Source: Eubacteriales bacterium | Lineage (GTDB): Bacteria > Bacillota > Clostridia > Oscillospirales > CAG-272 | Length of the DNA stretch: 64,000 nucleotides | Assembly (NCBI GenBank): GCA_041655935.1 | Contig: JBBAEK010000005.1 | Location: forward strand, 3,034 to 67,033 | Direction of reading: 5' to 3' | Part shown: positions 2,425 to 17,655 of the stretch, piece after piece | Layout of the letters: each line of letters opens with the position of its first letter | How positions within the stretch are numbered: position 1 is the stretch's first letter | Position numbers and translations under genes: made by a program | The notes under the pieces: model-generated | Seen by the model: only the letters and a program-made list of their open reading frames with translations | Databases searched by the model: none | What the model was told of the DNA's origin: nothing

Positions 2425-3336
2425 TTGAAAAAAGACAAAAGATCAATCATCGGATGGATCATGGTATCCATCACCACAGTATTCTCCTGCGTTTGGGCTT
2501 ATTGGGGAACCATAGAGAACTTTCATGAGGGGTGGTACTCCACGTCCCTCGGGGAGAATCTGTTCATGTTGTTCTTTCAGTATTTGCTGTTCACCATCAT
2601 CTTTGTAGCGCTGGCTGTCACGACGCTGCGGTGGAAGAAAATAGGGATGCTGTTGCATGGGATCGTGGCTGTGGGGAGTGTGTGGTTTTTTTCCGGCGCC
2701 AGCTTCAGCGTGATCGGCCTCATGGTGGCCATTCCCATCATTGCGCTGGGTATAGGCTATTATTATGGAGAGCCAAAGCCAAAGAAATGGGCTTACAGAC
2801 TGCTTGTGACCGTCCCGTTGCTCATGATTTTGGCGATTGCCATCCCACAAGGGATCAGGGTTTCCCAAAGGGTCAATGATCATGACGACGGCATGAGAAC
2901 GGTACCGGGCAATGGTGTCACATTGGTCTGGGCACCCAGAGGGCCCGGTTGGCCTGACCGGGGGACATCATGGGAGGAGGCGCAGAGAATCTGTCAATAC
3001 CTATCGGAAGACGGCACGGTCTTGATGGAAGAAGCGCAAAATATCTGGCGACTGCCTACGGTGGATGAGGCAGTTCGTTCCATGATGCTCCACGGACAAA
3101 ACGCGGGCGGCACATGGGACGCCCTCGAGGGGAAAGCGGTGTACCTACGAACTCCGGACAAAGAAACCCCTCTGTGGGACCCCCATTCCAAAGTGATTTA
3201 CTACTGGACCGCAGAAACCTCCCCGCAAGATGAGCGCAGGGCGTACATCATTGTGTATCACGGCGGTGTATATGGAAAAATGAAAACTGACGGGCAAGAC
3301 TACTTAAGCTTCCGCGCCGTGAAAGATGCGGAGTAG
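2425..3336 (+). CDS. polytopic membrane protein with C-terminal DUF1566 (Lcl C-terminal-like) domain
   Basis: TTG start with GGAGG 9 nt upstream. Several hydrophobic helices are followed by ...SWEEAQRICQ...IWRLPTVDEA..., typical of DUF1566. Confidence 0.65.
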   Translation: MKKDKRSIIGWIMVSITTVFSCVWAYWGTIENFHEGWYSTSLGENLFMLFFQYLLFTIIFVALAVTTLRWKKIGMLLHGIVAVGSVWFFSGASFSVIGLMVAIPIIALGIGYYYGEPKPKKWAYRLLVTVPLLMILAIAIPQGIRVSQRVNDHDDGMRTVPGNGVTLVWAPRGPGWPDRGTSWEEAQRICQYLSEDGTVLMEEAQNIWRLPTVDEAVRSMMLHGQNAGGTWDALEGKAVYLRTPDKETPLWDPHSKVIYYWTAETSPQDERRAYIIVYHGGVYGKMKTDGQDYLSFRAVKDAE

Positions 3337-3399
3337 CCATTTGTATGCGCGCAAAAGAAAAATGGCAATGCCACTCTTTTGGCGGATGGCATCGTGGTA

Positions 3400-6264
3400 T
3401 CAGAACTCGAAAGTGTTGAGCTCGTCATACACCTCATGGTATCTGATTCTTTTCACAGTCGCCCAGAGCGCTTCAAAATCCGACAGGTATTCGCCCCTGT
3501 ACAGGGACAGCAGCTCCTTGGCCGTCTCTCTGGTTTTGTGAAGTTTGAACGCTTCATACGCCTTTTCAAAAAGCTCGGCATCACATTCGATTTTCTCGCG
3601 ACAGAGAAAATAACGGTTCCCCCGACAGACGACCGATGCTTCTATCCCTGCGGCTTTCAGGTCATTCTTTAAGTGTTGCAGATTCACCGAAATCAGGTTC
3701 TTGATATTGCCGGACTCGGAGTCCCACCATATCGCGTTATGTATCTGTTCTTTGGTCGCCCCCTGTTCACCCACGTCGAGCAGAAAGGCCAACAGCTCGC
3801 GTTCCTTTTTTGTCCTGAATTTGACCATACTTTTTCTTTCTCTGTCCTGATACACAGTGAAGGCTCCCAGCGTTTCAACATAGACCTTTCTGGGCCGGTA
3901 TCCGACAAAGGCCATCATCTGCGCGGTGAACTCGGGCTCTATGCCATGCTCATACGCCCACTCCAGAATCGGGTCGTAGGCCTTCCGCATTTTAAAATAC
4001 TCATACAGCCCGTATTCCCGGCAGAGCCTCAGGTACCGCGCGGTCAGCATTGTTGCCTTTTCCTGCTCCTTTGCCGCTATTGCCGCTCGGGCAAGCACTC
4101 CGTACGCCAGGGAGGCATGCAGCATCAGTCCGGCGCTCTCCCCGGTCTCAATGCACTGTCTCGCGCACCAAACGGCATTCGGATAATCGGATACCGCGCC
4201 ATAATACCCCATCAGCCGGGCAAACACAATGCTTTTCAAGTAATCGCCCGCGCCGTCCAGGTTGTCCATGATTTCGCGGACCATGTCTTCCTTCGGGTCA
4301 CTCGTGAACATCAGGCTATAGGTCAGGTGTTGCATTGTTGCCCAATGCATCTGGAAACGGGTTTTCCGGTACAGCGGCGCATATTCGTCTGCCAGGGCAA
4401 AATACTTGATAGCGGTTTCATAGGAGGCGTTCTGCCCGTTCATTCTGTCAGTCAAGGCATTCTGATAGTGTATCTCGGCCGCCAGCAGGTAGCCTGCCCA
4501 CAGCTCCTCATAGTTTCCCGTATTCCTGAGCCGCGAAAGCTCCGCTGACAGCACGGAGAGGGAGCGGCTCCGCTCGCCTAACAGCTGATAGGCCTTCGCG
4601 ACATAAATAGCGGTACTGTGTACTCCTAAAAAGCTTTGCTCCTCCTCCGGGATTTCAAAGGACTTTTCGTAGTACTGCACCGACTCCTTCATATTGCCTT
4701 TGAAAAAGCATACGGCGCACAGATACCGTTCAAACCAACGCTTCACCTTCAGGTTGCCGGCGTTGGCACAGCGCCCGATCATCTGCCGCGCGAGCGTCTC
4801 CGCTTCATGGATCAGCGGAATCCAGCACAGGTTATACAGCTTTTCGATGCCCACCGAATAGACCGACTCGTCGGCCGAATCGCCTAACTTTTCCATCAGC
4901 TCGTCCAACAGCCGGTTTGATGCCTCAAATGAATCAAAATTGCGCAGGACCCTTGCCTGATGGATCATTGCCTCTACATACAGTGGCCGGTCATGCTCGT
5001 TCATTAGGGGGATAGCCGCCGCCAGGCAGGCTTTAGCCCCGACGAAATTCCCGACAAACGACAGGTAAGCCCCCTTTGCCACCAGCATCGGAGGGCTTGC
5101 TTTGACCGCCTTCTCGGGCAGCGCCCGGAACCAACCCCCGAGCTCGCTGTAATGGCCGGTTTTGATATACTCCCGGTAGCATGTGAGGATGATACTTTCC
5201 AGCAGCTCAAAATCCTTCGCGGCGATGGCATAACGGGCAGCCCTTGAATATTGCCGATGCTGAAAATAGTACCGCGCGGCACCCCGCCAAAGCAGGGCAG
5301 TCCGGTGCCGGTCCGCCATTTCCGACAGACTGCTTTTGAAAAGCGCGTGGTAGCGATAACACCCGTCGCTCGTTTTCACAGTGAACATATTTCTCGCCAC
5401 CAGGCTTTCCAGCATCAGCCGTGTGTTTTTTTTGCCCAAAACCTCATCCAGCATCCCGGCTTCCAGCTCATCAAAGCAGGCGGATGCTTTCAGAAAATCC
5501 ACCATATCGGGGTTCAGATTGGCGATACATTCCCGGAAAAGGTAGGTGTACAAAGTTTCCCTGCCGTAGGCGGAGAGGTGGTCAATGGGTATGCCGTTCT
5601 CCAAAAGCACCCGGAAAAACCGTATGGCCAGGGGCCACCCCTCGCTGGCATCGTACAGGGCGGGCTCGTCAAAGCCTACAATATCGGTGACTTCCTCCCG
5701 TGTAAAGGCCAGCTCTTTTTGGGTCAGCTCTGTCAGGTCCCCCTTGATTTTAAACGACACGAATTCCTGCGGGAGAGCCTCCCGGCTGCCAAAGCAGAAG
5801 CGGACATTTTTCGGGGGATATTTGATCAGACACTCTATCAGTTTTTTGATATCCCGGCTTTCGATCGAGTGCAGGTCGTCCAGAACGAGGAGAAAATCGC
5901 AAGGGATTTTTTCCATGCCGCAGGCAAGCAAGCCCGCCAGGATGGCAATGAAATTCTTTTTTTCATGAAAAGGCATATATTCCGATGCCGAAAAGTCGAA
6001 CTCCGGGAAGGTGTACCGGATGGACTGACCGAGCGCGAACACAAAGGAGAACACATCCTCCTCTTCGCTCAAGGTCAACCAGGCGGCCTTGGAGGCTCTT
6101 TGGGCTACCTGTGAGAGCAGAGTGGTCTTTCCGTACCCCGCGCCCGCATGGATATAGACCAGCCTGGCGGGACTGCTCATGAGGACATGGATTAAATGGC
6201 TGCGTATGATTTCTCCTGCGGCGGCTCCCGGTGCCGACAGCCTTACACTCGGAATATCGGACAT
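3400..6264 (-). CDS. STAND-type transcriptional regulator: N-terminal P-loop NTPase, helical/TPR-like middle, C-terminal winged-helix plus BTAD
   Basis: Walker A GAGYGKTTLL and Walker B LLVLDDLH. C-terminus: VETLGAFTV...TKKERELLAFLL...ELFEKAYE...YRGEYL (OmpR/SARP-type DNA-binding plus BTAD). An extended -10 (TGGTATACT) inside the longer ORF argues for the ATG at 6264 rather than the TTG at 6351. Confidence 0.8.
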   Translation of the reverse strand: MSDIPSVRLSAPGAAAGEIIRSHLIHVLMSSPARLVYIHAGAGYGKTTLLSQVAQRASKAAWLTLSEEEDVFSFVFALGQSIRYTFPEFDFSASEYMPFHEKKNFIAILAGLLACGMEKIPCDFLLVLDDLHSIESRDIKKLIECLIKYPPKNVRFCFGSREALPQEFVSFKIKGDLTELTQKELAFTREEVTDIVGFDEPALYDASEGWPLAIRFFRVLLENGIPIDHLSAYGRETLYTYLFRECIANLNPDMVDFLKASACFDELEAGMLDEVLGKKNTRLMLESLVARNMFTVKTSDGCYRYHALFKSSLSEMADRHRTALLWRGAARYYFQHRQYSRAARYAIAAKDFELLESIILTCYREYIKTGHYSELGGWFRALPEKAVKASPPMLVAKGAYLSFVGNFVGAKACLAAAIPLMNEHDRPLYVEAMIHQARVLRNFDSFEASNRLLDELMEKLGDSADESVYSVGIEKLYNLCWIPLIHEAETLARQMIGRCANAGNLKVKRWFERYLCAVCFFKGNMKESVQYYEKSFEIPEEEQSFLGVHSTAIYVAKAYQLLGERSRSLSVLSAELSRLRNTGNYEELWAGYLLAAEIHYQNALTDRMNGQNASYETAIKYFALADEYAPLYRKTRFQMHWATMQHLTYSLMFTSDPKEDMVREIMDNLDGAGDYLKSIVFARLMGYYGAVSDYPNAVWCARQCIETGESAGLMLHASLAYGVLARAAIAAKEQEKATMLTARYLRLCREYGLYEYFKMRKAYDPILEWAYEHGIEPEFTAQMMAFVGYRPRKVYVETLGAFTVYQDRERKSMVKFRTKKERELLAFLLDVGEQGATKEQIHNAIWWDSESGNIKNLISVNLQHLKNDLKAAGIEASVVCRGNRYFLCREKIECDAELFEKAYEAFKLHKTRETAKELLSLYRGEYLSDFEALWATVKRIRYHEVYDELNTFEF

Positions 6265-6626
6265 ATCAATCCACCCACCATACATGATTTTTTGTAAGTA
6301 TACCATGAGCAAAAATGTTTGCTTGCAAGGGCATTTTTGCGAAGCCGTCAATTAGGCATCGCATGTCAGTGCGGGGGGAGCGTCAGCTCCCCGGTATTGC
6401 AAAAGCAATACCATTACCTGCATTATACCATAAAAATACGAAAATCTCAATAAAATAACCAAAAAACAGGCAAAAAAACGATATGTGTTCACGGTTTTGT
6501 TCATTTCATTTTTATATAATAAATAGGAATACATGATTTGAGCAACAATGCGGCAGTTTTTATGCAGATTGACATCGCTCTCGGAACAGACACCGTCCGG
6601 GACAGAACAGAAATCGGGGGGGTGCG

Positions 6627-8321
6627 ATGAACTTGGCAAAAACAAAAAAGCTGATGACAGTTTTCCTGGCAATTACCTTACTGTTTTCTTATATTTCGCT
6701 GTTTTCGATGAGCGTCAACGCGATCGGGGGCATCTCGCCACCCGAGGCACTGACCGGCACCGCGCCGGTCGCCGGATTCGGAAACGCGCTTCATTTTGCC
6801 GCAAACAAAAGGCTGAACATTCCTTTTTCCGACGAGACGAGCATCGGAGGCGGTACGGATTTCACCATTTCCATGTGGGCTTTCCCCGACGACACAGGCA
6901 GTTATTATACATTATATCGGCAGTATCAAGTCAATAGCGGCGCGCTCGGGGTATGGCTACGGTACATCAATCAATACGGCGGGTATCTGTATTGCGGGTT
7001 TGATATATTCGGCGGCGCAGGCTGGCAATGGCCCTGGGCGTGGGCAATCGGTCCGTCCGCCGATTTGCCGAGGATCCCCCCAAACGAATGGTTTCATGTG
7101 GCTATGACCAAGTCGGGGAACCTGGTCACCGTCTATCTGAACGGGGAAGTCTGTTTTGAAATGACGCTGGACGCCGCGCACCGCAACGCACCCGCTCCCA
7201 CCGGCGCTACCATCAGTGTGGGCGGAGAAAGCCAGAACAGCCAGTATTGGAACGGCAAGCTGGATGAGGTCGGCTATTTCGATACCGCACTGTCACAGGC
7301 GGAAATCCGGGCATGGATGTTTCGGGAAATTGACAGTACCCATTCGAAATATGAAAACCTGGCTTGCTATTACCCCCTGAATCAAAGCAGCGGCACTGCT
7401 GTCACCGATTTGACCGGCACCCATCACGGCACTACCGTGGGCATGACGGATGCCGACTGGGTGGCGTCGGATATCAAAACCTGGACCGTCCGTGCGGGTA
7501 CCAACAACACCTGTCAGCTGGTAGGGTCGGATGCCGACGGCACGAGCCACAACGGCACCGACTGGAATCTGACATTCGAGATCACCACCTCCCCGCTTCA
7601 CGGTACAGCGTCGGTGATAGGGGACAACCGGTTTTCGTACACCGTACCTTTGGGCAGTGCGACCACCGATTCTCTGACCTACCGGGTCCGTGACGCGGAC
7701 GGCAATTATTCCGCTCCCCGGACGGTATACATCAACATCCTGTCGATCGTTTCTGTCACCTTTGAAACATACGGCGGCAGCTCTGTCGCCGAACAAAGCT
7801 GTTCATACGGGGCTACGGTGACGCCCCCCGCGACCCCCACCCGGGACGGGTATGAATTCGCGGGATGGTATCAGGATTCCGACTGCCAGACCCCTTGGGT
7901 GTTTGCCGTAAATACGGTGACGGCCGATACGGTCATTTATGCCAAGTGGGATTTGGTGCCCGTCATCAGCGTGACGGTCACTTGGGGGAGCATGGAGTTT
8001 ACCTATACGGACGGCACATGGAACCCCGAAACCCATGAGTACGAGGACGCGGGATGGACCGTCGAGGAGGATGAGAACAAAATCTCGGTTACCAGCACCT
8101 CGAATGTGGCGGTCAAGGTAAGTTATTCCTATGCGCAGGCACCCGGCTACGAGGCGCTCAGCGGCAGTTTTACCGACGGGGCGGGCCCCGTGACCTTCCG
8201 GGAGCTTGCCGCGGGGGACACTACCCCCCAAAGCTGCGCGGCGTATCTGGTGCTCAAGGGCAAACCTCCCGAATGCAATGAAAGTAAAATCGGCTCGATC
8301 ACCGTGACCGTCACCGAGTAG
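6627..8321 (+). CDS. secreted multidomain protein: signal peptide, LamG/ConA-like lectin, Ig/cadherin-like, one InlB B-repeat, C-terminal novel module
   Basis: Signal peptide ending VNA-IG. LamG-like motifs (FTISMWAF..., WFHVAMTKSGNLVTVYLNGE, WNGKLDEVGYF). B-repeat VTFETYGG...GYEFAGWY...IYAKW. The C-terminal module VTWGSMEFTYTDGTWNPETHEYE... is shared with ORF 9066. Confidence 0.75.
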   Translation: MNLAKTKKLMTVFLAITLLFSYISLFSMSVNAIGGISPPEALTGTAPVAGFGNALHFAANKRLNIPFSDETSIGGGTDFTISMWAFPDDTGSYYTLYRQYQVNSGALGVWLRYINQYGGYLYCGFDIFGGAGWQWPWAWAIGPSADLPRIPPNEWFHVAMTKSGNLVTVYLNGEVCFEMTLDAAHRNAPAPTGATISVGGESQNSQYWNGKLDEVGYFDTALSQAEIRAWMFREIDSTHSKYENLACYYPLNQSSGTAVTDLTGTHHGTTVGMTDADWVASDIKTWTVRAGTNNTCQLVGSDADGTSHNGTDWNLTFEITTSPLHGTASVIGDNRFSYTVPLGSATTDSLTYRVRDADGNYSAPRTVYINILSIVSVTFETYGGSSVAEQSCSYGATVTPPATPTRDGYEFAGWYQDSDCQTPWVFAVNTVTADTVIYAKWDLVPVISVTVTWGSMEFTYTDGTWNPETHEYEDAGWTVEEDENKISVTSTSNVAVKVSYSYAQAPGYEALSGSFTDGAGPVTFRELAAGDTTPQSCAAYLVLKGKPPECNESKIGSITVTVTE

Positions 8322-8333
8322 AAGGGAGCGCAT

Positions 8334-8981
8334 ATGGGAAACTATTACCGGACAAAAGAACAGGACAAAAAGCTGATTCTGACCATTCTGCTGTGCGTGG
8401 TCATTTTGGCATCCGCCACGGTGACGATCGTTTTACTGGTCAAAAAATCCCACCGACCGGATGATCAAGACTTGTATCCTACACTTTCTCTGGAGCCGAA
8501 TGCCGAGCTTATCGATGAAGGCGGCTCGACGCAGGCACCGCTCACGAATCCCGAGGGCGGCGGCGCGGTTGGGTTGACCTATTCAAATCAGGCGACCGCC
8601 CCCCGGGGGGACGGCGTGGCAAGCATTCTGTTCAGGAACCCGGCCAAGTCCAACCAGGGCATCATCATTCAGCTTCAGATTACCGACCGGGAGCTGATCG
8701 ACAAACTGGGCAAGACGGGCAGAACAGCGGAAGAAAAAGCCCTCATTGAGGACGCGGAGGGCTACGACAGCGAAACAAGCCGGATGATGATCGCCGAATC
8801 GGGGCTGCTTGAGCCGGGATACCAGCTGGCCACCCTCAGCTTACAGGCACTGCCCGACGGCACCGTGCTACCGGCGGGAACGTATCAGGCGGTATTCTAT
8901 ATACTCGCCTACGACAAAACTACACACGAAAGAGCGATTGTCAACATACAGCTTCCCATCGTCTTGACAATAGAAGATTAA
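8334..8981 (+). CDS. N-terminally membrane-anchored protein of unknown function (paralog of 9683)
   Basis: RBS AAGGGAG. A single TM helix (LILTILLCVVILASATVTIVLLV) is followed by a beta-rich domain. Confidence 0.6.
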   Translation: MGNYYRTKEQDKKLILTILLCVVILASATVTIVLLVKKSHRPDDQDLYPTLSLEPNAELIDEGGSTQAPLTNPEGGGAVGLTYSNQATAPRGDGVASILFRNPAKSNQGIIIQLQITDRELIDKLGKTGRTAEEKALIEDAEGYDSETSRMMIAESGLLEPGYQLATLSLQALPDGTVLPAGTYQAVFYILAYDKTTHERAIVNIQLPIVLTIED

Positions 8982-9065
8982 AAGCATTTTCAAAGGATCT
9001 GCCTCAGGAAGCACCGTGATTTCCTGAAAAGATAAAAATACACCTGATGAAAGGAAAGAAAACTC

Positions 9066-9593
9066 ATGAAGAAACTGATTTCCGCATTGCTCATTCTTGG
9101 CATGTCTCTCTTGCTGTGTATTCCGTCTTATGCCGCCACCATCAACACGGACGGAGGAACAGCCAGCGCCGACGTGAAAGGTACCTACCAGGCCGGGGCG
9201 TCCGCTTCTGTTGTTTTGAGTGTGGATGTTACCTGGGGAAGCATGGAATTTACATACACCGATGCTTCCGAGGGCACATGGAACCCGACCACTCATACCT
9301 ACGAAGATATTGAACCCGCCGCATGGACAGTGGCTGCCGATGCGAACAAAATTACCGTCACCAACCATTCCAACACTGACCTAAGAGTGAATTTTTCCTA
9401 TACCCCGGGCGAAAACTATGACGGCATCTCAGGCACATTCTCCAATAGTTTTGTTGATTTAGCGACAGCCGTAGGCACCACCGTGGCAGGTGCCCCGACA
9501 GACAGCACCTTCCTGACGCTTTCCGGCGACCTCGACTCCGACGCAGACCAGACGGTCATCGGCTCGGTTACCGTGACCCTTGACCTCGGCTAA
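9066..9593 (+). CDS. small secreted protein consisting of the novel TWGSMEFTY module
   Basis: Signal peptide (LLILGMSLLLCIPSYA-AT), then VDVTWGSMEFTYTDASEGTWNPTTHTYED..., collinear with the C-terminus of ORF 6627. Confidence 0.7.
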   Translation: MKKLISALLILGMSLLLCIPSYAATINTDGGTASADVKGTYQAGASASVVLSVDVTWGSMEFTYTDASEGTWNPTTHTYEDIEPAAWTVAADANKITVTNHSNTDLRVNFSYTPGENYDGISGTFSNSFVDLATAVGTTVAGAPTDSTFLTLSGDLDSDADQTVIGSVTVTLDLG

Positions 9594-9682
9594 TAACCAT
9601 GCATCACGAGGTTACAGGGCGCGCCCTGTAACCTCCGTCCCCCTTACAGAGTGCCCACTCACCGATCTATGAAAAGGCACGT

Positions 9683-10207
9683 GTGACCATGGAGCAACTA
9701 CGGCACATGCACAAACAAGCACCATCCCCCCTCCTCATAGCGTTATCGGTCATTTGCTGCCTTTCGGTGGCGATGATGATCTATGCCCTGATCACGGCCA
9801 CCCATGAAACGCCCTTTTCTCCGCCCGAATTTGATCGGACGGCACTTGTCGGCACGCCTGAAGTGCCGCAGGCGTTAGGGTATTCCCGGCTGCAGGTTGA
9901 GCAGGGCTTTCAGGCGTATGTCTGCGGCAACCTGCTTGCCGATGGCAGGCAGGTGGACGTCTATTTCACCTCGCCCGAAACCAACACGGTCTGGCTACTG
10001 CTTCGCTTACTTGACGAGCAGGGCAGGGTGCTGGGCGAGACAGGCATCATCCGCCCCGGCGAATATGTGAAAGCCGTCACACTTCATGCCGCGCCGGACG
10101 GCGAGCAAAACTTGCAGTTGAAAATCGTCGCCTACCAACCCGAAACGTATGTCAGTATGGGGACGGTAGGCTTACATACAACGCTGAAAATCGGCGGACA
10201 GGAGTGA
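9683..10207 (+). CDS. N-terminally membrane-anchored protein of unknown function (paralog of 8334)
   Basis: Single TM helix (LLIALSVICCLSVAMMIYALI). The ectodomain has the same length and motif order as 8334. Start is GTG 9683 or ATG 9689. Confidence 0.6.
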   Translation: MTMEQLRHMHKQAPSPLLIALSVICCLSVAMMIYALITATHETPFSPPEFDRTALVGTPEVPQALGYSRLQVEQGFQAYVCGNLLADGRQVDVYFTSPETNTVWLLLRLLDEQGRVLGETGIIRPGEYVKAVTLHAAPDGEQNLQLKIVAYQPETYVSMGTVGLHTTLKIGGQE

Positions 10208-10247
10208 AAGCGGCGCGCTTCCCCCTGCCACAGGAACATCAACAACA

Positions 10248-10293
10248 AAGCACTCTAAGATTATGTTATCTTAGAGTGCTTGATTTGTTTTTT
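10248..10293 (+). terminator. intrinsic terminator of the four-gene cluster
   Basis: AAGCACTCTAAGAT-tatgtt-ATCTTAGAGTGCTT followed by GATTTGTTTTTT. Confidence 0.8.
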
Positions 10294-10421
10294 GACTCCA
10301 CCGTCTGCCTGACCGCTCGCCGTATGCGGCAAAAGCACAAGCATCTTTTTTGGCAACGCGCTCCGGACAACCGCCTCCCATCGCTCGCAAGGGAAAATCA
10401 TCGGTAAAAACAGAAAAAGTT

Positions 10422-10450
10422 TTGCAAATCAAGGCTTTTTGTATTATAAT
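10422..10450 (+). promoter_or_regulatory. consensus-like sigma70 promoter (TTGCAA-17-TATAAT)
   Basis: TTGCAA at 10422-10427, a 17-nt spacer, TATAAT at 10445-10450. It drives a ~270-nt leader before the ABC remnant. Confidence 0.55.
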
Positions 10451-10718
10451 AGATAGCGATAGAACAGGTAAACAGAGCGAATCGCGTCGCACCACCAGCC
10501 CACGGGGTTTGGTCGGGTTGGATGTGAGTACCATGAACTCACGCATGCGGATGGGTGGATGAAAGATGATTGATGCGGAAAGTATCCTGGCGGTGCCGAA
10601 CAGCGATTTACCAGAGGCGTCCCTGCGCGGCGATTCACCTTGATTGGATAGAGGGGATTGCCCACGGGCAGCAGGCAGGCTTCAGTGTCTCAAATCGGAA
10701 AAAGACAGGGGCATTTGT

Positions 10719-10915
10719 ATGAGTGTTTGTGAAATTCATGGCTTGACTCGGGAGTATGGCAAAGGACGCGGCGTGTTTGATGTGTCCTTTTCGATTCATC
10801 AGGGGGAGATGTTTGGCTTTCTTGGGCCAAACGGCGCGGGGGAAACCACGACCATCCGCCACTGATGGGCTTTCTGAAACCTCACAAAGGACTGGCACAT
10901 CTAAGAGGCAAATTT
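10719..10915 (+). pseudogene. ABC transporter ATP-binding protein, N-terminal remnant (frameshifted, truncated)
   Basis: MSVCEIHGLTREYGKGRGVFDVSFSIHQGEMFGFLGPNGAGETTTIRH, then a stop. The expected continuation LMGFLKPHKG...LRGKF is in the +2 frame, after which similarity ends. Q-loop, signature and Walker B are absent. Confidence 0.6.
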
Positions 10916-10926
10916 GTTGTTTTTGC

Positions 10927-10955
10927 TTTACTTTTTCCGCTTTCTATGGTAGAAT
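10927..10955 (+). promoter_or_regulatory. possible promoter of V-ATPase operon (TTTACT-17-TG-n-TAGAAT)
   Basis: An extended -10, TGGTAGAAT, at 10947-10955, with -35 TTTACT at 10927-10932. Confidence 0.35.
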
Positions 10956-11156
10956 ATTAGCGATTTTGGGTTTTTCTGTTGGACAGGTAACTAATCCCGG
11001 GCTTTTTAGCCGCAGGCCGGGAGCCTCTCTGACAGCTTTCCCGCGCTGACATTTTATTCGACGAAAAGCATGATGACATGGCAGTGCCGAGGGATGATTC
11101 GGCATATAAATAAAAATACTAACCCATGACAGCTGAGACCGAAAGGACGGGAGCAA

Positions 11157-11495
11157 ATGGCAAGCAACGCAATTTTGCGCATCAAGGAAGCGGAAGCGCA
11201 GGCGCAGAAAATCATCACGAGCGCGCAAGAGGAAGCCGCCCGCCTGATCAGGCGCGCCGAAGAAGAAGCGGCCGACGCCTTTTCACGCCTGACAGAAACA
11301 GGCAAGCGGCAGGCGCTTGAAAAAAAGCAAGCCACAGAAGCGGCCATCCGGGAAAGCAATGCGCACCTCTCTCAGGAGAACATCGCCTTGTGTGAGGCGC
11401 TGAGACAAAGTTTCTTATCAAACAAAGCAAGGGCCATCGATGCCATCATTCAAATAATCACAGCACCGTCCGGCGCAAAAGGAGGAAGTGACTGA
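11157..11495 (+). CDS. V/A-type ATPase small peripheral-stalk subunit (G/H-like coiled coil)
   Basis: 112-aa Ala/Glu/Arg-rich coiled coil (ILRIKEAEAQAQKIITSAQEEAARLIRRAEEEA). It is the first gene of the operon, immediately before subunit I. Confidence 0.55.
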   Translation: MASNAILRIKEAEAQAQKIITSAQEEAARLIRRAEEEAADAFSRLTETGKRQALEKKQATEAAIRESNAHLSQENIALCEALRQSFLSNKARAIDAIIQIITAPSGAKGGSD

Positions 11496-13458
11496 TTTGG
11501 CAATTGTCAAAATGAATCAGATTTCCGTATGCGGGCTTCACGCAGACAGAAAAGCCATTTTGGAGGAGTTGCATCAACAGGAACTCGTCGAGGTCTGCGA
11601 ACCGGAGGCGGAAGATATCACTTGCCCGGAAACGGAGAAAAGCATCGCGCAGTTTGATGAGCACATGCAGGCCGCCGAATCAGCCCTGGCGGTACTCGAT
11701 CAATACGCCCCTGAAAAGACCGGCTTTTTTTCCAATCGGCGCGTCTTGCCGCTGCAAAACTACCATATGTCCCCGGCGCACAGCAAAACCACCCTGCAGG
11801 TCATCTATCAGATCATTCGGTTGTCCGAGAAAATACGCGAGCTCACGGAAAGCATCCGGCAGATTGCCGCCAAGCAAACTGCACTCGAACCCTACCTTGC
11901 TTTGGATATTCCGATGAACACCTATGGCACCGAACATACGCGGGTCAAGGTCGGGGTGCTGAACGGCATATGGTCTGCCGAGCAACTGCAAAAGGAAGAA
12001 GAAGCCGATGGGGCGGACTGCGTCCACTTTGAGGTTTTAAGCACCTCCAGGGAACACACCTATCTCTGGCTTGCCTTTTTAAGGGCACAGGAGCCGAGAG
12101 TCACCGCCTTTCTGAAAAAAATCGGGTTTTCCGAACCCTCTTTCAGCCTGTCGCACCATCCGCCTCAAAAAAAGACCGAGGTGCTGGAAGAAGCCAAGCA
12201 AAGGCTCACGAAGGAAATTCGGGAGTGCGTCTCCGGGATCATAGAGCAAAGCCGTTGCCGCGCCGACATCGAGCTTCTCTATGACCACCAGAGTTTGCGA
12301 AAAGATAAGTATCAGGTGCTCGCCAAATTGGGGATGACGGAGCACGTGTTTTTCCTGGCAGGCTATATTCCGGAAAAACAGGCCAACAGTGTCAAGGAGC
12401 ATCTCGAAAACCGGTGGCAGGTGTCTGTGGAGCTGGCAGAACCGGAGAATCCGGAAGAGGCGCCCGTCGCCTTCCGAAACGGCTCTTTCGCCGCACCGGT
12501 GGAGGAAATCACCGAAACATACAGCATGCCCTCCCCCACGGATATCGACCCGAACCCGGTGATGGCATTTTTCTACTACCTGTTTTTTGGCATGATGTTC
12601 AGCGATGCCGGCTACGGACTGCTGCTGGCGCTGGTGTGCGGGTATCTCGGATTCGGCAGACGGCTGGAGAAAGAAAAACGCAAGAAGTTTCAAATGTTTT
12701 TCTACTGCGGGATATCCACGATATTGTGGGGACTGCTGTACGGCAGCTTCTTCGGCAATATGATCTATACCGTGTCCACCACCTTTTTCGGGCGAGAAAT
12801 CACGCTGGCACCGCTGTGGCTCGACCCCATTTCCCAGGCGCTGCCGCTATTGATTTACAGCGTGGCATTCGGCATGATTCAGATCATCTCCGGTCTGGCA
12901 CTCAAATTCTATGCCCTCTGCCGTCAGAAAAAGGTCGTGGACGCCGTGTGCGACGCGGGGCTTTGGATGGTCGTGCTGGTCGGCATCTGCCTGCTGGCTG
13001 CCGGGATGGGACTGAGCTTTCCCGTCCTTAGAAGCATCGGCACGTGGCTGGCTTTGCTGGGTGCCGCAGGCCTCTTGGTGACCGGCGGACGCGGGAGCAA
13101 GAACATCTTCGGGAAAGTGCTCGGCGGTGTCTTTGGCCTGTACGGTATCACGGGATATGTCAGCGATGCGCTTTCCTACTGCCGTCTGATGGCGCTGGGA
13201 CTGGCCACCGGCTGTATCGCCAACGTCGTCAATATGCTGGGCGCCATGTTCGGCACCTCCTTCCTCGGGATGGTTTTATTCCTCATCGTGGCGGTATTCG
13301 GACACAGCCTGAATTTCGCGATGAACATGCTCGGCGCCTACGTCCACACCAACCGCCTGCAATACGTCGAATTTTTCAGCAAATTTTACGAGGGCGGCGG
13401 CAGAAAATTCGAACCGTTCCGGATGAATACGAAATACTGTCACTTTTCAGAAGAATAA
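11488..13458 (+). CDS. ntpI: V-type ATPase subunit I (membrane a-subunit homolog)
   Basis: 656 aa. Soluble N-terminal half plus C-terminal polytopic half with the conserved LSYCRLMALGLA...NMLGAYVHTNRLQYVEFF motif. An alternative TTG start lies at 11497. Confidence 0.9.
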   Translation: MTDLAIVKMNQISVCGLHADRKAILEELHQQELVEVCEPEAEDITCPETEKSIAQFDEHMQAAESALAVLDQYAPEKTGFFSNRRVLPLQNYHMSPAHSKTTLQVIYQIIRLSEKIRELTESIRQIAAKQTALEPYLALDIPMNTYGTEHTRVKVGVLNGIWSAEQLQKEEEADGADCVHFEVLSTSREHTYLWLAFLRAQEPRVTAFLKKIGFSEPSFSLSHHPPQKKTEVLEEAKQRLTKEIRECVSGIIEQSRCRADIELLYDHQSLRKDKYQVLAKLGMTEHVFFLAGYIPEKQANSVKEHLENRWQVSVELAEPENPEEAPVAFRNGSFAAPVEEITETYSMPSPTDIDPNPVMAFFYYLFFGMMFSDAGYGLLLALVCGYLGFGRRLEKEKRKKFQMFFYCGISTILWGLLYGSFFGNMIYTVSTTFFGREITLAPLWLDPISQALPLLIYSVAFGMIQIISGLALKFYALCRQKKVVDAVCDAGLWMVVLVGICLLAAGMGLSFPVLRSIGTWLALLGAAGLLVTGGRGSKNIFGKVLGGVFGLYGITGYVSDALSYCRLMALGLATGCIANVVNMLGAMFGTSFLGMVLFLIVAVFGHSLNFAMNMLGAYVHTNRLQYVEFFSKFYEGGGRKFEPFRMNTKYCHFSEE

Positions 13459-13483
13459 CTATTGATCAATAAGAAAGCGGGTA

Positions 13484-13975
13484 ATGATGATGATGTACGG
13501 TTTACTTTTTGCATTTTTGGGTGCTGCCGTGGCGATTGCCACGACAGGGATGGGCTCCGCGAAAGGCGTCGGGCTGGCCAGTGAGGCCGCCGCCGGTGTG
13601 ATTACGGATGATCCGAAAAAATTCGGCAGGCTGATCGTTTTGCAGCTGTTGCCCGGCACACAGGGTCTTTACGGATTTATTATCAGTATTATGGTCATGT
13701 CGAACATCGGGGTGCTGGGCGGTACGCCACCCACGGATATTGTGACGGGACTGATCTATTTTGTCGCCTGTCTGCCTGTGTCGATCGGTTGTTTTTTCTC
13801 TGCCATTCTGCAAGCTCGGGTTTGTGTGGCAGGCGTGAATATTATCGCGAAAAAGCCGGCTGAAAGCGGCAAAGCCATTGTGTCGGCATCGCTGGTAGAG
13901 CTGTACGCCCTGATCTCCTTTATTGCTTCCCTGCTTTTGGTCACGAATGTCAGTCGGGTTGTCGAGATGCTATGA
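13484..13975 (+). CDS. ntpK: V-type ATPase proteolipid subunit K (16-kDa, double hairpin)
   Basis: GSAKGVG...LQLLPGTQGLYGF...AKKP...VELYALISF, collinear with Enterococcus hirae NtpK. Confidence 0.9.
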   Translation: MMMMYGLLFAFLGAAVAIATTGMGSAKGVGLASEAAAGVITDDPKKFGRLIVLQLLPGTQGLYGFIISIMVMSNIGVLGGTPPTDIVTGLIYFVACLPVSIGCFFSAILQARVCVAGVNIIAKKPAESGKAIVSASLVELYALISFIASLLLVTNVSRVVEML

Positions 13976-14565
13976 GCGGACTGGATAACATCATCGCGGA
14001 AATTGCAGTGCAGGCAAACGGGAAGGCGGACAGGATTCTCAGCGAAGCCCGTCAAAAGGCCGCCGAAATCCTTGAAAAGGGCCGGGCCGAGCGTGAGGAA
14101 TGGCAGCACCGCCTTGACGAGACCACCGAGCAGGAATGCCTCGACATACTCACGCAGGCAAAGTCCGCCACCCGACAGGAGCGCCGCCGCGCTTTGCTCA
14201 GGGCGCGCGGTCAGGTGATTGATGAGATCATCGCCGAAGCCAAGGCAAAGATAGAGAGCCTGCCGGATACGGAGTACTTTGACTTTTTGTTCCGCCTGTT
14301 TGAAAAAAACGCGCAGCCGTTGGACGGACTCATTCGCTTTGCCCCCGCGGATTATGCCGGGATTCCGGGCGACTTTTTGGCGCGCTGCCGGCAGGTCTGC
14401 CCCGGGTCTACCCTCCGCTTGTCCGGGGATATGGACACGATCCGGCGCGGCTTTGTCATTGAATACGGGAAGGTCCTGCAAAACTGCTCCATCGACGCCA
14501 TTTTCGAGTCGGAAAGACAACGCCTGCGGGATACGGTGAATGAAGTCCTGACATCGGATGCGTAA
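13972..14565 (+). CDS. ntpE: V-type ATPase subunit E
   Basis: 197 aa. N-terminal charged coiled coil and globular C-terminus. Operon position is after K, with start/stop overlap. Confidence 0.8.
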   Translation: MSGLDNIIAEIAVQANGKADRILSEARQKAAEILEKGRAEREEWQHRLDETTEQECLDILTQAKSATRQERRRALLRARGQVIDEIIAEAKAKIESLPDTEYFDFLFRLFEKNAQPLDGLIRFAPADYAGIPGDFLARCRQVCPGSTLRLSGDMDTIRRGFVIEYGKVLQNCSIDAIFESERQRLRDTVNEVLTSDA

Positions 14566-14576
14566 AGGAGGTTGGT

Positions 14577-15554
14577 ATGAAAGAAGCCGAGTATGCCTAT
14601 GCGTCAGCCTATACACGCACATTGGAAAACAAGATGCTTCAAAAGTCGGATTTTGAAGCGTTGCTGAGCGCGTCCTCTTTGGAAGAAGCATGGCGGATTC
14701 TTTCAGACAAGGGATACGGACACGGCAAGACGGGCCAACCCCTCGACACGGAAACGCTGCTCAAAGAGGAGCTGCTCTTTGTGTGGGGGGAGGTGAAAGA
14801 CGCCTGCCCCGAAGACGCGCCGATTGACATTTGGTTGTATCGGAACGATTTTCACAACCTGAAAGCCATTTTGAAAGCGGTCGTCAGCGGCGCCGCTTAT
14901 GAATCTTTGATGATGGCGCCCTGTACCGTCCCGCCCGATGAGCTGTATCGCGCGGTGGCGGAAGGCAAAATCGAAAGCCTGCCGGAAATGCTGAGGGGGC
15001 CCGCGGCGGAAGCGTATGAGTTCCTCGTGCGCGACAACGACGGCCGGCGGGCGGAGATTGTGCTGGATAAGGCCCTTTTTTCCGTCATGAATCGGGCTGC
15101 CGTCGCCTCCCAAAACGCCTTTTTAATGGACTGGGCGGATCTGAATGCTGCCCTCCTGAACATGAAAATCGCCCTGCGCGGCGCACACAGCGGCACCGGC
15201 AGGGAATTTCTGCGTGACGCGATGCCGGATTGCCGGCGGATGGATGCGGATGAACTCGCGGGCGCCGCTACGCAGGGTATCCCCGCCGTGCTGGCACTTT
15301 TCAGACAGCGCGGTTTTGAGGAAGCGGCAGAGGCGGCAGGGGAATCGATCAGCGCCTTTGAAAAATGGTGCGACAATGAGCTGATCCGCTCCCTGCAGCC
15401 GGCTCGGACCAAAACCTTCGGCTTTGAGCCTGTTTGGGGCTTTTTAGTCGGCAAACAGTTTGAACTGCACTCGGTGCGCATGATCCTGTCGGGGATTCGC
15501 GGCGGGCTGTCGGCGGGTGTGTTACGGGAAAGGCTGCGTGATTTATATGTATAA
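14577..15554 (+). CDS. ntpC: V-type ATPase subunit C (eukaryotic d homolog)
   Basis: 325-aa helical protein. Operon position between E and F. Confidence 0.8.
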   Translation: MKEAEYAYASAYTRTLENKMLQKSDFEALLSASSLEEAWRILSDKGYGHGKTGQPLDTETLLKEELLFVWGEVKDACPEDAPIDIWLYRNDFHNLKAILKAVVSGAAYESLMMAPCTVPPDELYRAVAEGKIESLPEMLRGPAAEAYEFLVRDNDGRRAEIVLDKALFSVMNRAAVASQNAFLMDWADLNAALLNMKIALRGAHSGTGREFLRDAMPDCRRMDADELAGAATQGIPAVLALFRQRGFEEAAEAAGESISAFEKWCDNELIRSLQPARTKTFGFEPVWGFLVGKQFELHSVRMILSGIRGGLSAGVLRERLRDLYV

Positions 15555-15864
15555 TATCGGTGTCATCGGAGAGTATGACAGCATTTGCGGGTTTTCCGCG
15601 GTAGGATTCAGCATCTTTCCTGTCGAGTCGGCGGAACAGGCGCGAAAAACACTCAAAACCCTGGCAGATCAAGCGTACGGCATCATCTATATCACGGAAC
15701 CGTTCATGGAAGAGCTGAAAGAAGACTGCGCGCGGTACGATGAGCGGCCCACGCCCTGTATCATTCCCATTCCTGCGTTCACCGGGTTGACGGGCTTTGC
15801 GGAAGGCAGGCTCCGGCAGTGCGTGGAGCGGGCGGTCGGTTCCGATATCATATTTACTGATTGA
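15547..15864 (+). CDS. ntpF: V-type ATPase subunit F
   Basis: MYNIGVIGEYDSICGFSAVGF... is a typical subunit F N-terminus. The ATG at 15547 overlaps the stop of subunit C (ATGTATAA). Confidence 0.8.
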   Translation: MYNIGVIGEYDSICGFSAVGFSIFPVESAEQARKTLKTLADQAYGIIYITEPFMEELKEDCARYDERPTPCIIPIPAFTGLTGFAEGRLRQCVERAVGSDIIFTD

Positions 15865-15882
15865 GAAAGGTATCATCCTGAT

Positions 15883-17655
15883 ATGAGCATAAGCAAAGGC
15901 ATCATCCGCAAAGTGTCGGGGCCACTGGTCGTGGCCAGCGGCATGCGAAGCGCCAACATGTTTGATGTGGTGCATGTCAGCCGCCTGGGGCTTGTCGGTG
16001 AAATTATTGAAATGCACGGCGACCTGGCGTCCATTCAGGTGTATGAGGAAACCTCCGGGCTCGGGCCGGGAGAGGAAGTCATCTCGACGGGGAGCCCGCT
16101 GTCCGTCGAACTGGGGCCGGGCCTGATCGGCAGCATTTATGACGGGATCCAAAGACCGCTTGACGCGATCAAGCAGCAAATCGGGACGAATCTGCAGCGC
16201 GGCGTACGGGTGCCGTCTTTGAACCGGGAGAAGAAGTGGCACTTTTCCCCCGCAAAAAAGGCGGGGGAGCGGTTGGTGGCCGGCGACATTTTGGGAAGTG
16301 TGCAGGAAAGCGCGGTGGTGGCGCACAGGATTCTGCTGCCCCACGGCTGTGACGGAGAGCTTCTGTCACTCCGTGCCGGAGAATTCACCGTGACCGAGCC
16401 CATCGGCGAGGTCAAGCGTGACGACGGCAAAATCATCCCCCTGACCCTGATGCAGAAATGGCCGGTCCGAAAAGGCCGCCCCTATCAGGAGAAACTGTCA
16501 CCGGATGTGCCGATGGTCACCGGACAGCGGGTCATTGATACCCTCTTTCCGATCGCCAAAGGCGGCGTCGCCGCCGTTCCCGGGCCGTTCGGCAGCGGAA
16601 AAACCGTCGTGCAGCACCAGCTGGCAAAATGGGCGGACGCCGACATTGTCGTGTATATCGGTTGCGGCGAGCGCGGCAACGAGATGACCGACGTACTCAA
16701 CGAGTTCCCCAAAATCAAGGACCCGAAAACCGGGAAAACACTGATGGAGCGCACGGTGCTCATCGCCAACACCTCGGATATGCCCGTGGCGGCCCGCGAG
16801 GCGTCGGTTTATACGGGCATGACGATGGCAGAGTATTTTCGGGATATGGGGTATAGCGTGGCACTGCTGGCCGATTCCACCTCACGCTGGGCGGAAGCCT
16901 TGCGGGAAATGTCCGGGCGGCTGGAAGAAATGCCGGGCGAGGAAGGATACCCGGCGTATCTCGGGAGCCGTTTGGCCAGCTTTTACGAGCGGGCAGGGCG
17001 CGTACTTGCCCCGGGGCAGGACCGGCGCGAAGGGGCGCTCAGCGTGATCGGCGCGGTCTCTCCTCCGGGCGGGGATATCTCCGAGCCGGTCTCACAGGCG
17101 ACGCTACGGATTGTCAAGGTGTTTTGGGGCCTTGACTCCGCGTTGGCGTACCGCCGGCACTTCCCCGCGGTCAACTGGCTGAGTAGCTATTCGCTGTATT
17201 TGGACACCTTGCAGGATTGGTATCAGGACACCGTGGCGGAAGATTGGTCGGTCTTGCGCGGACGCATGATGGGGCTGTTGCACGAAGAAGCGGAGCTCAA
17301 TGAAATCGTCAAACTGGTCGGGATCGACGCCCTGAGCCGCCACGACCGCATGAAGCTGGAAACGGCGCGTTCCATCCGCGAGGACTACCTCCACCAGGAC
17401 GCATTCCATGAGATAGACACCTATTCTTCCCTGGAGCGTCAGCACTGCATGATGCGCTTGATTCTGACCTGTTACGATTTGTCCGTGCAGGCTTTGGAGG
17501 CCGGTATACACATCGACAAGCTGATCAAGCTCCCCGTGAGAGAGAAAATAGGCAGATTCAAGTATATTGAGGCAAGTCGGACTGCACAGGAATATGAAGC
17601 GATTTCTCTGCAACTTCAACAGGAAATTGCCGCTCTGCTGAAGGAGGAGGAATAA
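15883..17655 (+). CDS. ntpA: V-type ATPase catalytic subunit A
   Basis: Walker [10 protein letters not shown], non-homologous insert region, 590 aa. Confidence 0.95.

Follow-up and report, generated by a model that had tools for sequence, protein, structure and literature searches.

A stretch of 64,000 nucleotides (nt; 57% GC) of contig JBBAEK010000005.1, from the Eubacteriales bacterium assembly GCA_041655935.1 and hereafter called the window, carries at positions 3400–10293 an operon of four genes together with a divergently transcribed gene for a large regulator. The operon encodes two secreted proteins, X1 and X2, which have a C-terminal module (module X) in common, and two membrane-anchored proteins, Y1 and Y2. 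It is one instance of a widespread and undescribed gene organization, tip–Y1–(X)n–Y2–(Z), of which the window has lost the fifth component, Z, and which is accompanied there by a putative lineage-specific activator. We tentatively propose, rating the chances as close to even but short of it, that the operon specifies a multi-protein cell-surface adhesin assembly conserved across Clostridia, in which tip, stalk and base subunits would join head to tail, the Y proteins would serve as membrane factors and the regulator would activate transcription. This assembly is possibly a fibre. A preliminary description of the DNA, drawn from its letters, had listed five open reading frames (ORFs), an AT-rich divergent gap and a terminator, and all are present as described (Table 1).

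Protein families and gene order

The anatomy given for X1 in that description is borne out by Pfam and NCBIfam, which recognize Laminin_G_3 (E 5e-19), Big_9 (E 5e-7) and Flg_new (the Listeria–Bacteroides repeat, E 2e-18) domains ahead of the C-terminal module. Residues 446–562 of X1 and 50–172 of X2 share 45% identity over 128 aa (E 3e-27), in keeping with the shared module already noticed. In the AlphaFold 2 (AF2) model of X2, residues 50–175 form a beta-sandwich with a predicted local distance difference test (pLDDT) score above 90, and the N-terminal extension, residues 24–48, is left unplaced with a pLDDT of about 57–64. Single-sequence and profile searches with module X found nothing in Pfam, NCBIfam or the PDB sequences; a match of X2 to a Lon protease in the PDB (E 2e-4) was judged spurious, as it disappeared with the family profile. 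Foldseek comparison of the X2 and Y1 models with the PDB, and of X2 with viral structures, gave no match at E<1e-3, with TM scores of about 0.3. The best, non-significant matches for both X and Y were chaperone–usher pilins and chaperones, generic Ig- or PapD-like folds and also the Tafi pilus. The Y family likewise has no match in Pfam, NCBIfam, PDB sequences or PDB folds, so that the view that neither X nor Y belongs to a described family holds by sequence as well as by fold.

Module X nevertheless defines a very large family. At E<=1e-3 the X2 family comprises 3,966 representatives at 50% identity, 2,859 of them at E<=1e-10, and a word-indexed search with X2 returned 296 matches, all annotated as hypothetical proteins of Clostridia. 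A family of this size without a relative in Pfam, NCBIfam or the PDB deserves attention, the more so as its main carriers are anaerobic and gut Clostridia, abundant human commensal genera among them, whose adhesion and colonization are little understood. The tip proteins that end in module X are highly variable, ranging from about 300 to more than 3,000 aa and bearing LamG, Big_9, Flg_new, Calx-beta or cadherin domains, and they are the obvious candidates for host-, mucin- or glycan-binding adhesins. Some small X proteins also bear extra domains at the C- or N-terminus, among them a possible beta-helix, matched weakly and below threshold, and a domain resembling ubiquitin. The latter is seen in a subunit from a Subdoligranulum metagenome-assembled genome (MAG; L069:10529-11860, sequence starting MQIFVKTQTGKTITIEVE...) and again in L073:10529-11854; it is a genuine ubiquitin-family domain (PF00240, E 2.5e-21), followed by the N-terminal extension with module X and then by an extra C-terminal domain. 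It is unusual to meet a ubiquitin fold in a presumed surface subunit of a bacterium.

Y1 and Y2 both have a short cytoplasmic N-terminus, a transmembrane (TM) helix in N-in orientation and a conserved juxtamembrane aromatic-P-P motif, which in Y2 takes the form F-x-P-P-x-F-D. The AF2 model of Y1 consists of the N-terminal TM helix (residues 8–39) and a beta-sandwich ectodomain; the Ig-like ectodomain of Y2 is homologous and lacks the helical insert of Y1, which measures 29 aa in the profile alignment. Y2 has 174 aa when read from its GTG codon, and the public gene call begins eight codons later (166 aa). The two proteins are barely similar in pairwise comparison, and their homology, also put forward in the preliminary description, is established by profile–profile alignment (hhalign 96.6%, E 7e-10, 138 columns). 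With about 17–23% identity between them, Y1 and Y2 are old and distinct orthologous groups rather than the outcome of a recent tandem duplication.

Relatives of the operon were collected by a scan of one genome per species, which gave 148 confirmed loci; 80 of these, each from a species-level genome, were kept for all locus counts. They were annotated with hidden Markov models for X, Y1 and Y2, and neighbouring ORFs were grouped by clustering. The 80 loci stem from Oscillospiraceae, Ruminococcaceae, Acutalibacteraceae, Lachnospiraceae and Christensenellales. Named carriers include Gemmiger formicilis ATCC 27749, Blautia acetigignens, Subdoligranulum and Ruthenibacterium, and further carriers are found in Mediterraneibacter, Agathobacter, Acetatifactor, Faecousia and Vescimonas. 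Two carriers, L034 and L060, are bins labelled Bacteroidota (Sodaliphilus, Bacteroidaceae); as every other carrier belongs to the Clostridia, these labels look like binning contamination and not like true distribution.

The gene order that recurs across these genomes starts with a large protein that has module X at its C-terminus; Y1 comes next, followed by between one and four small X genes, by Y2 (46 loci) and by Z (36 loci). Y1, immediately 3′ of the tip gene, was found in 74 of the 80 loci. In 45 of the 64 loci whose available sequence extends upstream of Y1, the gene directly 5′ of it carries an X module, and in 41 of these 45 the module is of the type without extension. A single X gene lies between Y1 and Y2 in 11 loci, two in 26, three in seven and four in one, and no locus has more than one Y1-type or more than one Y2-type gene, whatever its number of X genes. 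Y2 was not detectable in 34 of the 80 loci, and at least 21 loci with sufficient downstream sequence have neither Y2 nor the fifth gene. The minimal recurring set is thus tip, Y1 and small X, and Y1, being almost always present, appears essential and Y2 accessory.

These counts bear on the interpretation offered in the preliminary description, in which X1–Y1 and X2–Y2 would be duplicated cognate pairs, each Y serving as dedicated anchor, chaperone or display platform of its own X. The alternation X–Y–X–Y in the window and the paralogy within both families speak for such pairs. However, the alternation is restricted to loci with a single small X gene (11 loci), whereas 34 loci have two to four X genes between one Y1 and one Y2, and 34 of the 80 loci lack a detectable Y2. 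The deep divergence of Y1 from Y2 and the systematic difference between X1-type and small X proteins in their N-terminal extension also stand against this explanation, which the tip–Y1–(X)n–Y2 order contradicts and which we regard as improbable.

A second cluster adjoins the X/Y operon of a Gemmiger MAG on the opposite strand (L003:8647-14731, minus strand). Its products, of 175, 948, 217, 159, 172, 175 and 67 aa, have no Pfam match, and one of them is Y2-like; the cluster may represent a more divergent paralogous system.

N-terminal motif, protein Z and the RNA hairpin

The proposed head-to-tail assembly is suggested by the distribution of a short motif, [VI]x[AG][TKRS][YF], in the N-terminal extension. 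It occurs in 112 of 126 small or mid-size X proteins, as against one of 48 tip modules encoded by first genes; it is absent from Y and present in 1.2% of background ORFs. In X2 numbering, V37 is conserved in 118, A/G39 in 124 and Y41 in 117 of the 126 small X proteins. Hydrophobic residues at alternating positions are typical of a beta-strand, and the extension, with the consensus I/A-D-V-x-A/G-T/K-Y and the alternating residues I35, V37, A/G39 and Y41, is strand-like in this sense.

A related extension is found in the fifth family, Z, encoded in 36 of the 80 loci, always downstream and on the same strand. Z begins with a signal peptide and a conserved N-terminal motif, and a body of some 120 aa follows, then a signal of the form SPKTG, SPQTG or PPETG, a TM segment and a basic tail; profile searches of Pfam, NCBIfam and PDB sequences with this family returned nothing. 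The signal is of the (S/P)PXTG type that is cleaved by the sortase SrtB of Clostridioides difficile (PMC4155245). A looser pattern, [VI]x[AG][TKR]x, matches 26 of 33 Z sequences but also 19% of background ORFs, and it is rather the surrounding consensus, I-[GD]-V-x-A-[KR]-Y, that marks Z; most of the other seven sequences have close variants of it. Profile alignment of X with Z (hhalign 95.6%) takes in the signal peptide and the extension together with part of the module, and skips the segment W-G-x-M-E-F-T-Y...W-N-P-x-T-H-x-Y, the most conserved, Trp-rich part of module X. The preliminary description is right that the window has neither a sortase nor LPXTG, but the lack of a sorting signal does not extend to the 36 relatives whose operons end with a sortase-sorted Z. 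Within the subclade of the window, Z is intact in L018 and L008, reduced to a fragment in L001 (9176-9502) and split in L019 (5686-6192), and a search of the window for Z or a remnant of it found none. Z is decaying in the subclade and has been lost from the window, where the terminator directly follows Y2.

Three classes of protein can accordingly be distinguished: the tip has the module without the extension, the stalk has both, and the base protein Z has the extension and a wall anchor without the conserved core of the module. This is the pattern expected of a head-to-tail chain with defined ends. X1 would be exported first and form the distal tip, with its lectin-like and Ig-like binding domains carried on the C-terminal module X. 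X2, with its short amphipathic extension in front of module X, would be the repeating stalk subunit; its extension may dock in trans on the module of X1, and further X2 subunits may dock on one another, yielding a polar chain that starts from X1. In relatives, Z would cap the proximal end of the chain, and a housekeeping sortase would link it covalently to the cell wall. Y1 and Y2, as single-pass membrane proteins with Ig-like ectodomains, could act as assembly, chaperone or anchor factors at the membrane face, and in the window, where Z is absent, retention on the cell would depend on them. The operon thus provides a testable parts list, namely a tip with exchangeable binding domains, a stalk, two membrane factors and an optional wall-anchored base.

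Unusual RNA marks the junction at which Y2 follows the last small X gene. This gap has a median length of 116 nt in the relatives, and about 90% of the 37–38 gaps that could be folded are strongly structured in comparison with shuffled sequences (median minimum free energy -54 kcal/mol, median z -5). The tip–Y1 and X–X gaps are short and mostly unstructured. An intrinsic terminator was considered for this hairpin and rejected, a T-rich tail being present in only one of 37 cases, and a scan of positions 3000–11300 with Rfam found no known RNA family. The hairpin is a candidate mRNA 3′ stabilizer or attenuator favouring X over Y2. Placed after the last X gene, it would keep X transcripts in excess over those of Y2 and Z, as would befit X as the abundant subunit.

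Competing readings and known surface systems

By its organization, the operon most closely resembles the WxL/Csc clusters of Lactobacillales, Enterococcus and Listeria, which encode two WxL proteins, one large and one small, along with a DUF916–DUF3324 membrane protein and a small LPXTG protein (PMC1534035, PMC9772566). The two WxL proteins and DUF916 make up the minimal set, to which most clusters add the LPxTG protein (PMC9772566). The likeness lies in a C-terminal module common to a large, adhesin-like protein of several domains and to at least one small protein, the large ones bearing lectin- or adhesin-type domains, in a membrane-anchored Ig-like protein with an optional small sortase-anchored protein, and in the occurrence of both systems mainly in gut-associated Firmicutes. 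These parallels give weight to the main rival explanation, according to which the operon encodes a static, WxL/Csc-like surface complex and no polymer. In that case module X would be an anchoring module with the cell wall or the Y ectodomain as its target, Y would provide a platform on which large and small X proteins stand next to each other, Z would be an extra wall tether, and the N-terminal motif would be a Y-binding or sorting tag.

This explanation accommodates the same four parts, and the minimal set of tip, Y1 and small X parallels that of the WxL clusters (PMC9772566). It is also compatible with a module X that is predicted to be complete without the extension and with an extension that can be internal. 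Yet it leaves unexplained why the tip alone lacks the motif, why Z has the motif but not the Trp-rich core of module X, and why the X genes lie 5′ of a conserved RNA hairpin. X and Y also lack detectable homology with WxL, DUF916 or DUF3324: X1 and X2 have no WxL (PF13731) match at E<=0.1 and 36 members of the X family none at E<=1, the WxL motifs are absent from the X alignment, and Pfam gave no match, DUF916 and DUF3324 included, for Y1 or Y2, nor at E<=1 for 29 members of the Y2 family. Proteins of the DUF916 type have a C-terminal TM helix (PMC1534035), whereas Y is anchored by an N-terminal one. Further differences are that small X proteins carry the same module as the large ones, whereas the small and large WxL domains are predicted to differ (PMC9772566), and that Bacilli account for 99% of Firmicute WxL sequences (PMC9772566), the X/Y system being one of Clostridia. 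The asymmetry between tip and stalk in the extension has not been described for WxL, and a literature search on WxL filament structures found nothing relevant. We consider WxL/Csc an analogue of the X/Y system, or a relative beyond detection, rather than a family to which it belongs, and we rate a static complex of this kind as a serious but somewhat unlikely possibility. Conversely, the operon may shed light on the WxL clusters of Bacilli, which are built on the same four-part logic and are no better explained.

The head-to-tail adhesin assembly that we favour invites comparison with fibres built by strand or hook insertion. At the sequence level the tip, with its binding domains joined to a subunit module that lacks the N-terminal extension, recalls FimH in relation to FimA in chaperone–usher pili, and the stalk subunits resemble those of donor-strand or hook fibres in their N-terminal strand, which is short, conserved and amphipathic and centred on a small residue. 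F-ENA and Tafi are assembled through N-terminal hooks or strands (PMC11844507, PMC12337348), and the same principle would link the operon to TasA fibres and to archaeal bundling and Tafi pili, although it contains none of their defining proteins. In particular, neither a PapD-type chaperone nor an usher was matched in the operon by Pfam or NCBIfam or seen among the recurrent neighbour families that were inspected, most neighbour families not having been scanned with profiles. The host is a monoderm of the Clostridium type, and module X is predicted by AF2 to be complete without a donated strand. As the preliminary description had anticipated, profile searches gave no evidence of WxL, TasA/camelysin or pilin motifs: no Peptidase_M73/TasA domain was found in the operon proteins (Pfam, NCBIfam) or the X family, no SipW was detected, and the conserved neighbours include no signal peptidase. 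Identity with F-ENA was rejected, F-ENA proteins being of the DUF4183 type, assembled in the cytoplasm and without signal peptide (PMC11844507), whereas X proteins have one; neither the X proteins nor the X family match DUF4183.

Sortase-assembled pili of Gram-positive bacteria are likewise adhesive surface structures with a tip adhesin, a stalk and a wall-anchored base, and Z has a sortase signal. The sorting signal is confined to Z, however, with X1 and X2 ending without one. No pilin-motif or E-box family was matched, an ORF with TLxTC lies near the operon in only one of 87 sources, and there is no pilus-specific sortase in or near the operon. The operon is not a sortase-polymerized pilus.

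A bolder version of the favoured reading would make the operon the prototype of an unrecognized class of Gram-positive pilus. Such a pilus would be a non-covalent fibre nucleated by an adhesin and held together by insertion of an N-terminal strand or hook between Ig-like X modules; Y1 and Y2 would replace the Gram-negative chaperone and usher, the fibre would be fixed to the wall through Z or, without Z, to the membrane, and the class would be widespread in gut Clostridia (Gemmiger, Blautia, Subdoligranulum). We regard this as a realistic possibility, though less likely than not.

Several observations weigh against a head-to-tail assembly. The X2 module folds confidently without the extension in the AF2 monomer, with no sign of a missing strand, and in some proteins the extension is internal, following an extra N-terminal domain. 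The signal peptide contributes part of the similarity between X and Z. The role assigned to the Y proteins, which are devoid of the motif, is pure inference, and anchoring is left unexplained in the window, which lacks Z, and in those loci without detectable Y2. A search for RNA runs containing the window or the Gemmiger formicilis locus came up empty. A strict donor-strand model, in particular, is weakened by the predicted completeness of module X, by the occasionally internal extension and by the uncertain part of Y.

Alternatively, X could be a secreted effector or toxin with Y as its immunity protein, or the operon could specify an accessory structure of the spore or S-layer unrelated to adhesion. 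Small secreted proteins followed by small membrane proteins can form toxin–immunity pairs. X, however, is an Ig-like beta-sandwich that also forms the C-terminus of giant multi-domain, adhesin-like proteins, relatives have a sortase-anchored partner, and no enzymatic or pore-forming domains were found; as to spores, no sporulation genes are conserved among the neighbour families of the operon. Explanations of this type seem to us highly improbable.

Regulator, promoters and neighbouring sequence

The divergent gene encodes a P-loop STAND NTPase whose N-terminus matches the MalT model NF003420 (NCBIfam, residues 5–396, E 3.3e-43), with a score below the full-length cutoff because the C-terminus differs; Pfam adds an AAA_16 match (E 7.5e-6). 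Helical repeats make up the middle of the protein. When scanned alone, the C-terminus gave a weak match to Trans_reg_C, the OmpR/PhoB winged helix, at residues 819–874 (24.6 bits against a cutoff of 26.2), which is followed by a helical tail of about 80 aa. Trans_reg_C is the sole domain found there: no LuxR-type helix-turn-helix was detected in the C-terminus, and the BTAD domain assigned to it in the preliminary description was not recovered in the last 176 aa at E<=0.01. The description was right, however, in placing the DNA-binding domain at the C-terminus as in MalT, in an order that is the reverse of AfsR. The protein resembles MalT and other LAL regulators in its MalT-model NTPase, its long helical sensor region and its C-terminal DNA-binding domain, but it is not a canonical LAL, since this domain is of the OmpR/PhoB and not of the LuxR type. 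From SARP regulators such as AfsR it differs by its reversed domain order, with the winged helix C-terminal, and by the lack of a detectable BTAD.

The gap between the two transcription units (6268–6626) has 41% GC as compared with 57% for the window, and its core only 28%. The promoter of the regulator was assigned by consensus match; that of the operon has a -10 box and, at the -35 position, a direct repeat instead of a recognizable -35 box (Table 1). The sequence TGTTCACGGTT.TGTT.AT (window 6486–6505), which includes the repeat, is invariant in all five aligned loci linked to the regulator, in the midst of poorly conserved flanks. A direct repeat that replaces the -35 box is the usual mode of action of winged-helix activators of the OmpR/SARP type, and the combination of winged helix and repeat overlapping the -35 position resembles SARP-type activation. 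TGTTCA-N6-TGTTCA is the candidate binding site of the regulator, and within the subclade this invariant repeat ties the regulator to the operon. A divergent MalT-like activator appears to control the operon in this subclade: transcription would be activated by the NTPase, with the OmpR-type winged helix bound to the repeat that replaces the -35 box. Regulator and operator-like repeat may be a simple handle for turning the system on.

L001 and L002 have an orthologue (953 aa) in the same divergent position relative to the tip gene, and partial copies are found in L007, L018 and L019. With the window, these six loci, all of its subclade, are the only ones that have the regulator; in 17 others a MerR-type regulator gene lies upstream, and some have response regulators. 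The regulator is therefore not a defining part of the system, and of the co-occurrence raised by the preliminary description, that of X with Y holds across other genomes, whereas that with the STAND regulator is limited to the subclade.

Regulator-linked relatives also have a conserved small Cys-rich ORF of about 62–83 aa (...CPYC...ECSKF.YGKRV..) without signal peptide, situated between the operator/promoter and the tip gene (L018:709-960, L007:1465-1653, and the intergenic regions of L001 and L019). It is not a called gene in L001 or L002, and the window lacks the entire segment of about 250 nt.

Table 1. Features of the operon and regulator region (positions in the window)
Feature	Position	Strand	Description
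Regulator	3400–6267	-	955 aa from ATG; longest ORF 983 aa from TTG
Regulator promoter	6422–6450	-	sigma-70-like TTGAGA-17-TATAAT, 11/12 consensus matches, TG extension; consensus match only
Direct repeat	6486–6503	+	TGTTCA-cggttt-TGTTCA; ends 11 nt 5′ of the -10 box, at the -35 position
Operon -10 box	6515–6520	+	TATAAT, read from sequence; no recognizable -35
X1, tip-type subunit	6627–8321	+	564 aa; signal peptide 1–32; Laminin_G_3 69–227; Big_9 279–367
X1, C-terminal part	7962–8318 (module X)	+	Flg_new 377–440; module X 446–564; no N-terminal extension before the module
Y1	8334–8981	+	215 aa; N-in TM helix 8–39; juxtamembrane YPP motif; Ig-like beta-sandwich ectodomain with helical insert 119–138
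X2, small X subunit	9066–9593	+	175 aa; signal peptide 1–23; N-terminal extension 24–48; module X 50–175
X2 motif D-V-K-G-T-Y	9171–9188	+	residues 36–41, within the N-terminal extension
X2–Y2 hairpin	9608–9635	+	perfect 12-bp GC-rich stem, no U tract, z -3.9
Y2	9683–10207	+	166–174 aa depending on start: GTG 9683, ATG 9689 or ATG 9707
Intrinsic terminator	10248–10293	+	14-bp stem (10248–10281), U-rich tail, z -4.8; ends the operon

Sequence nearly identical to the window was found in landfill-metagenome DNA runs only, and the closest genome relatives of X2 are merely about 54–57% identical to it; the host is accordingly an unsampled member of the Clostridia. The 3′ end of the regulator gene is adjoined by a gene for a multi-pass membrane protein (2425–3336, plus strand), which has a weak DUF7670 match and, at its C-terminus, an Lcl_C-like match short of the threshold (32.2 bits, cutoff 34.9) and is not kept beside the operon in relatives. 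On the other side, the translations of 11157–17655 and beyond resemble, by eye, a V-type (Ntp/Atp) ATPase operon with subunits I, K, E, C, F and A, which is unrelated to the X/Y system.

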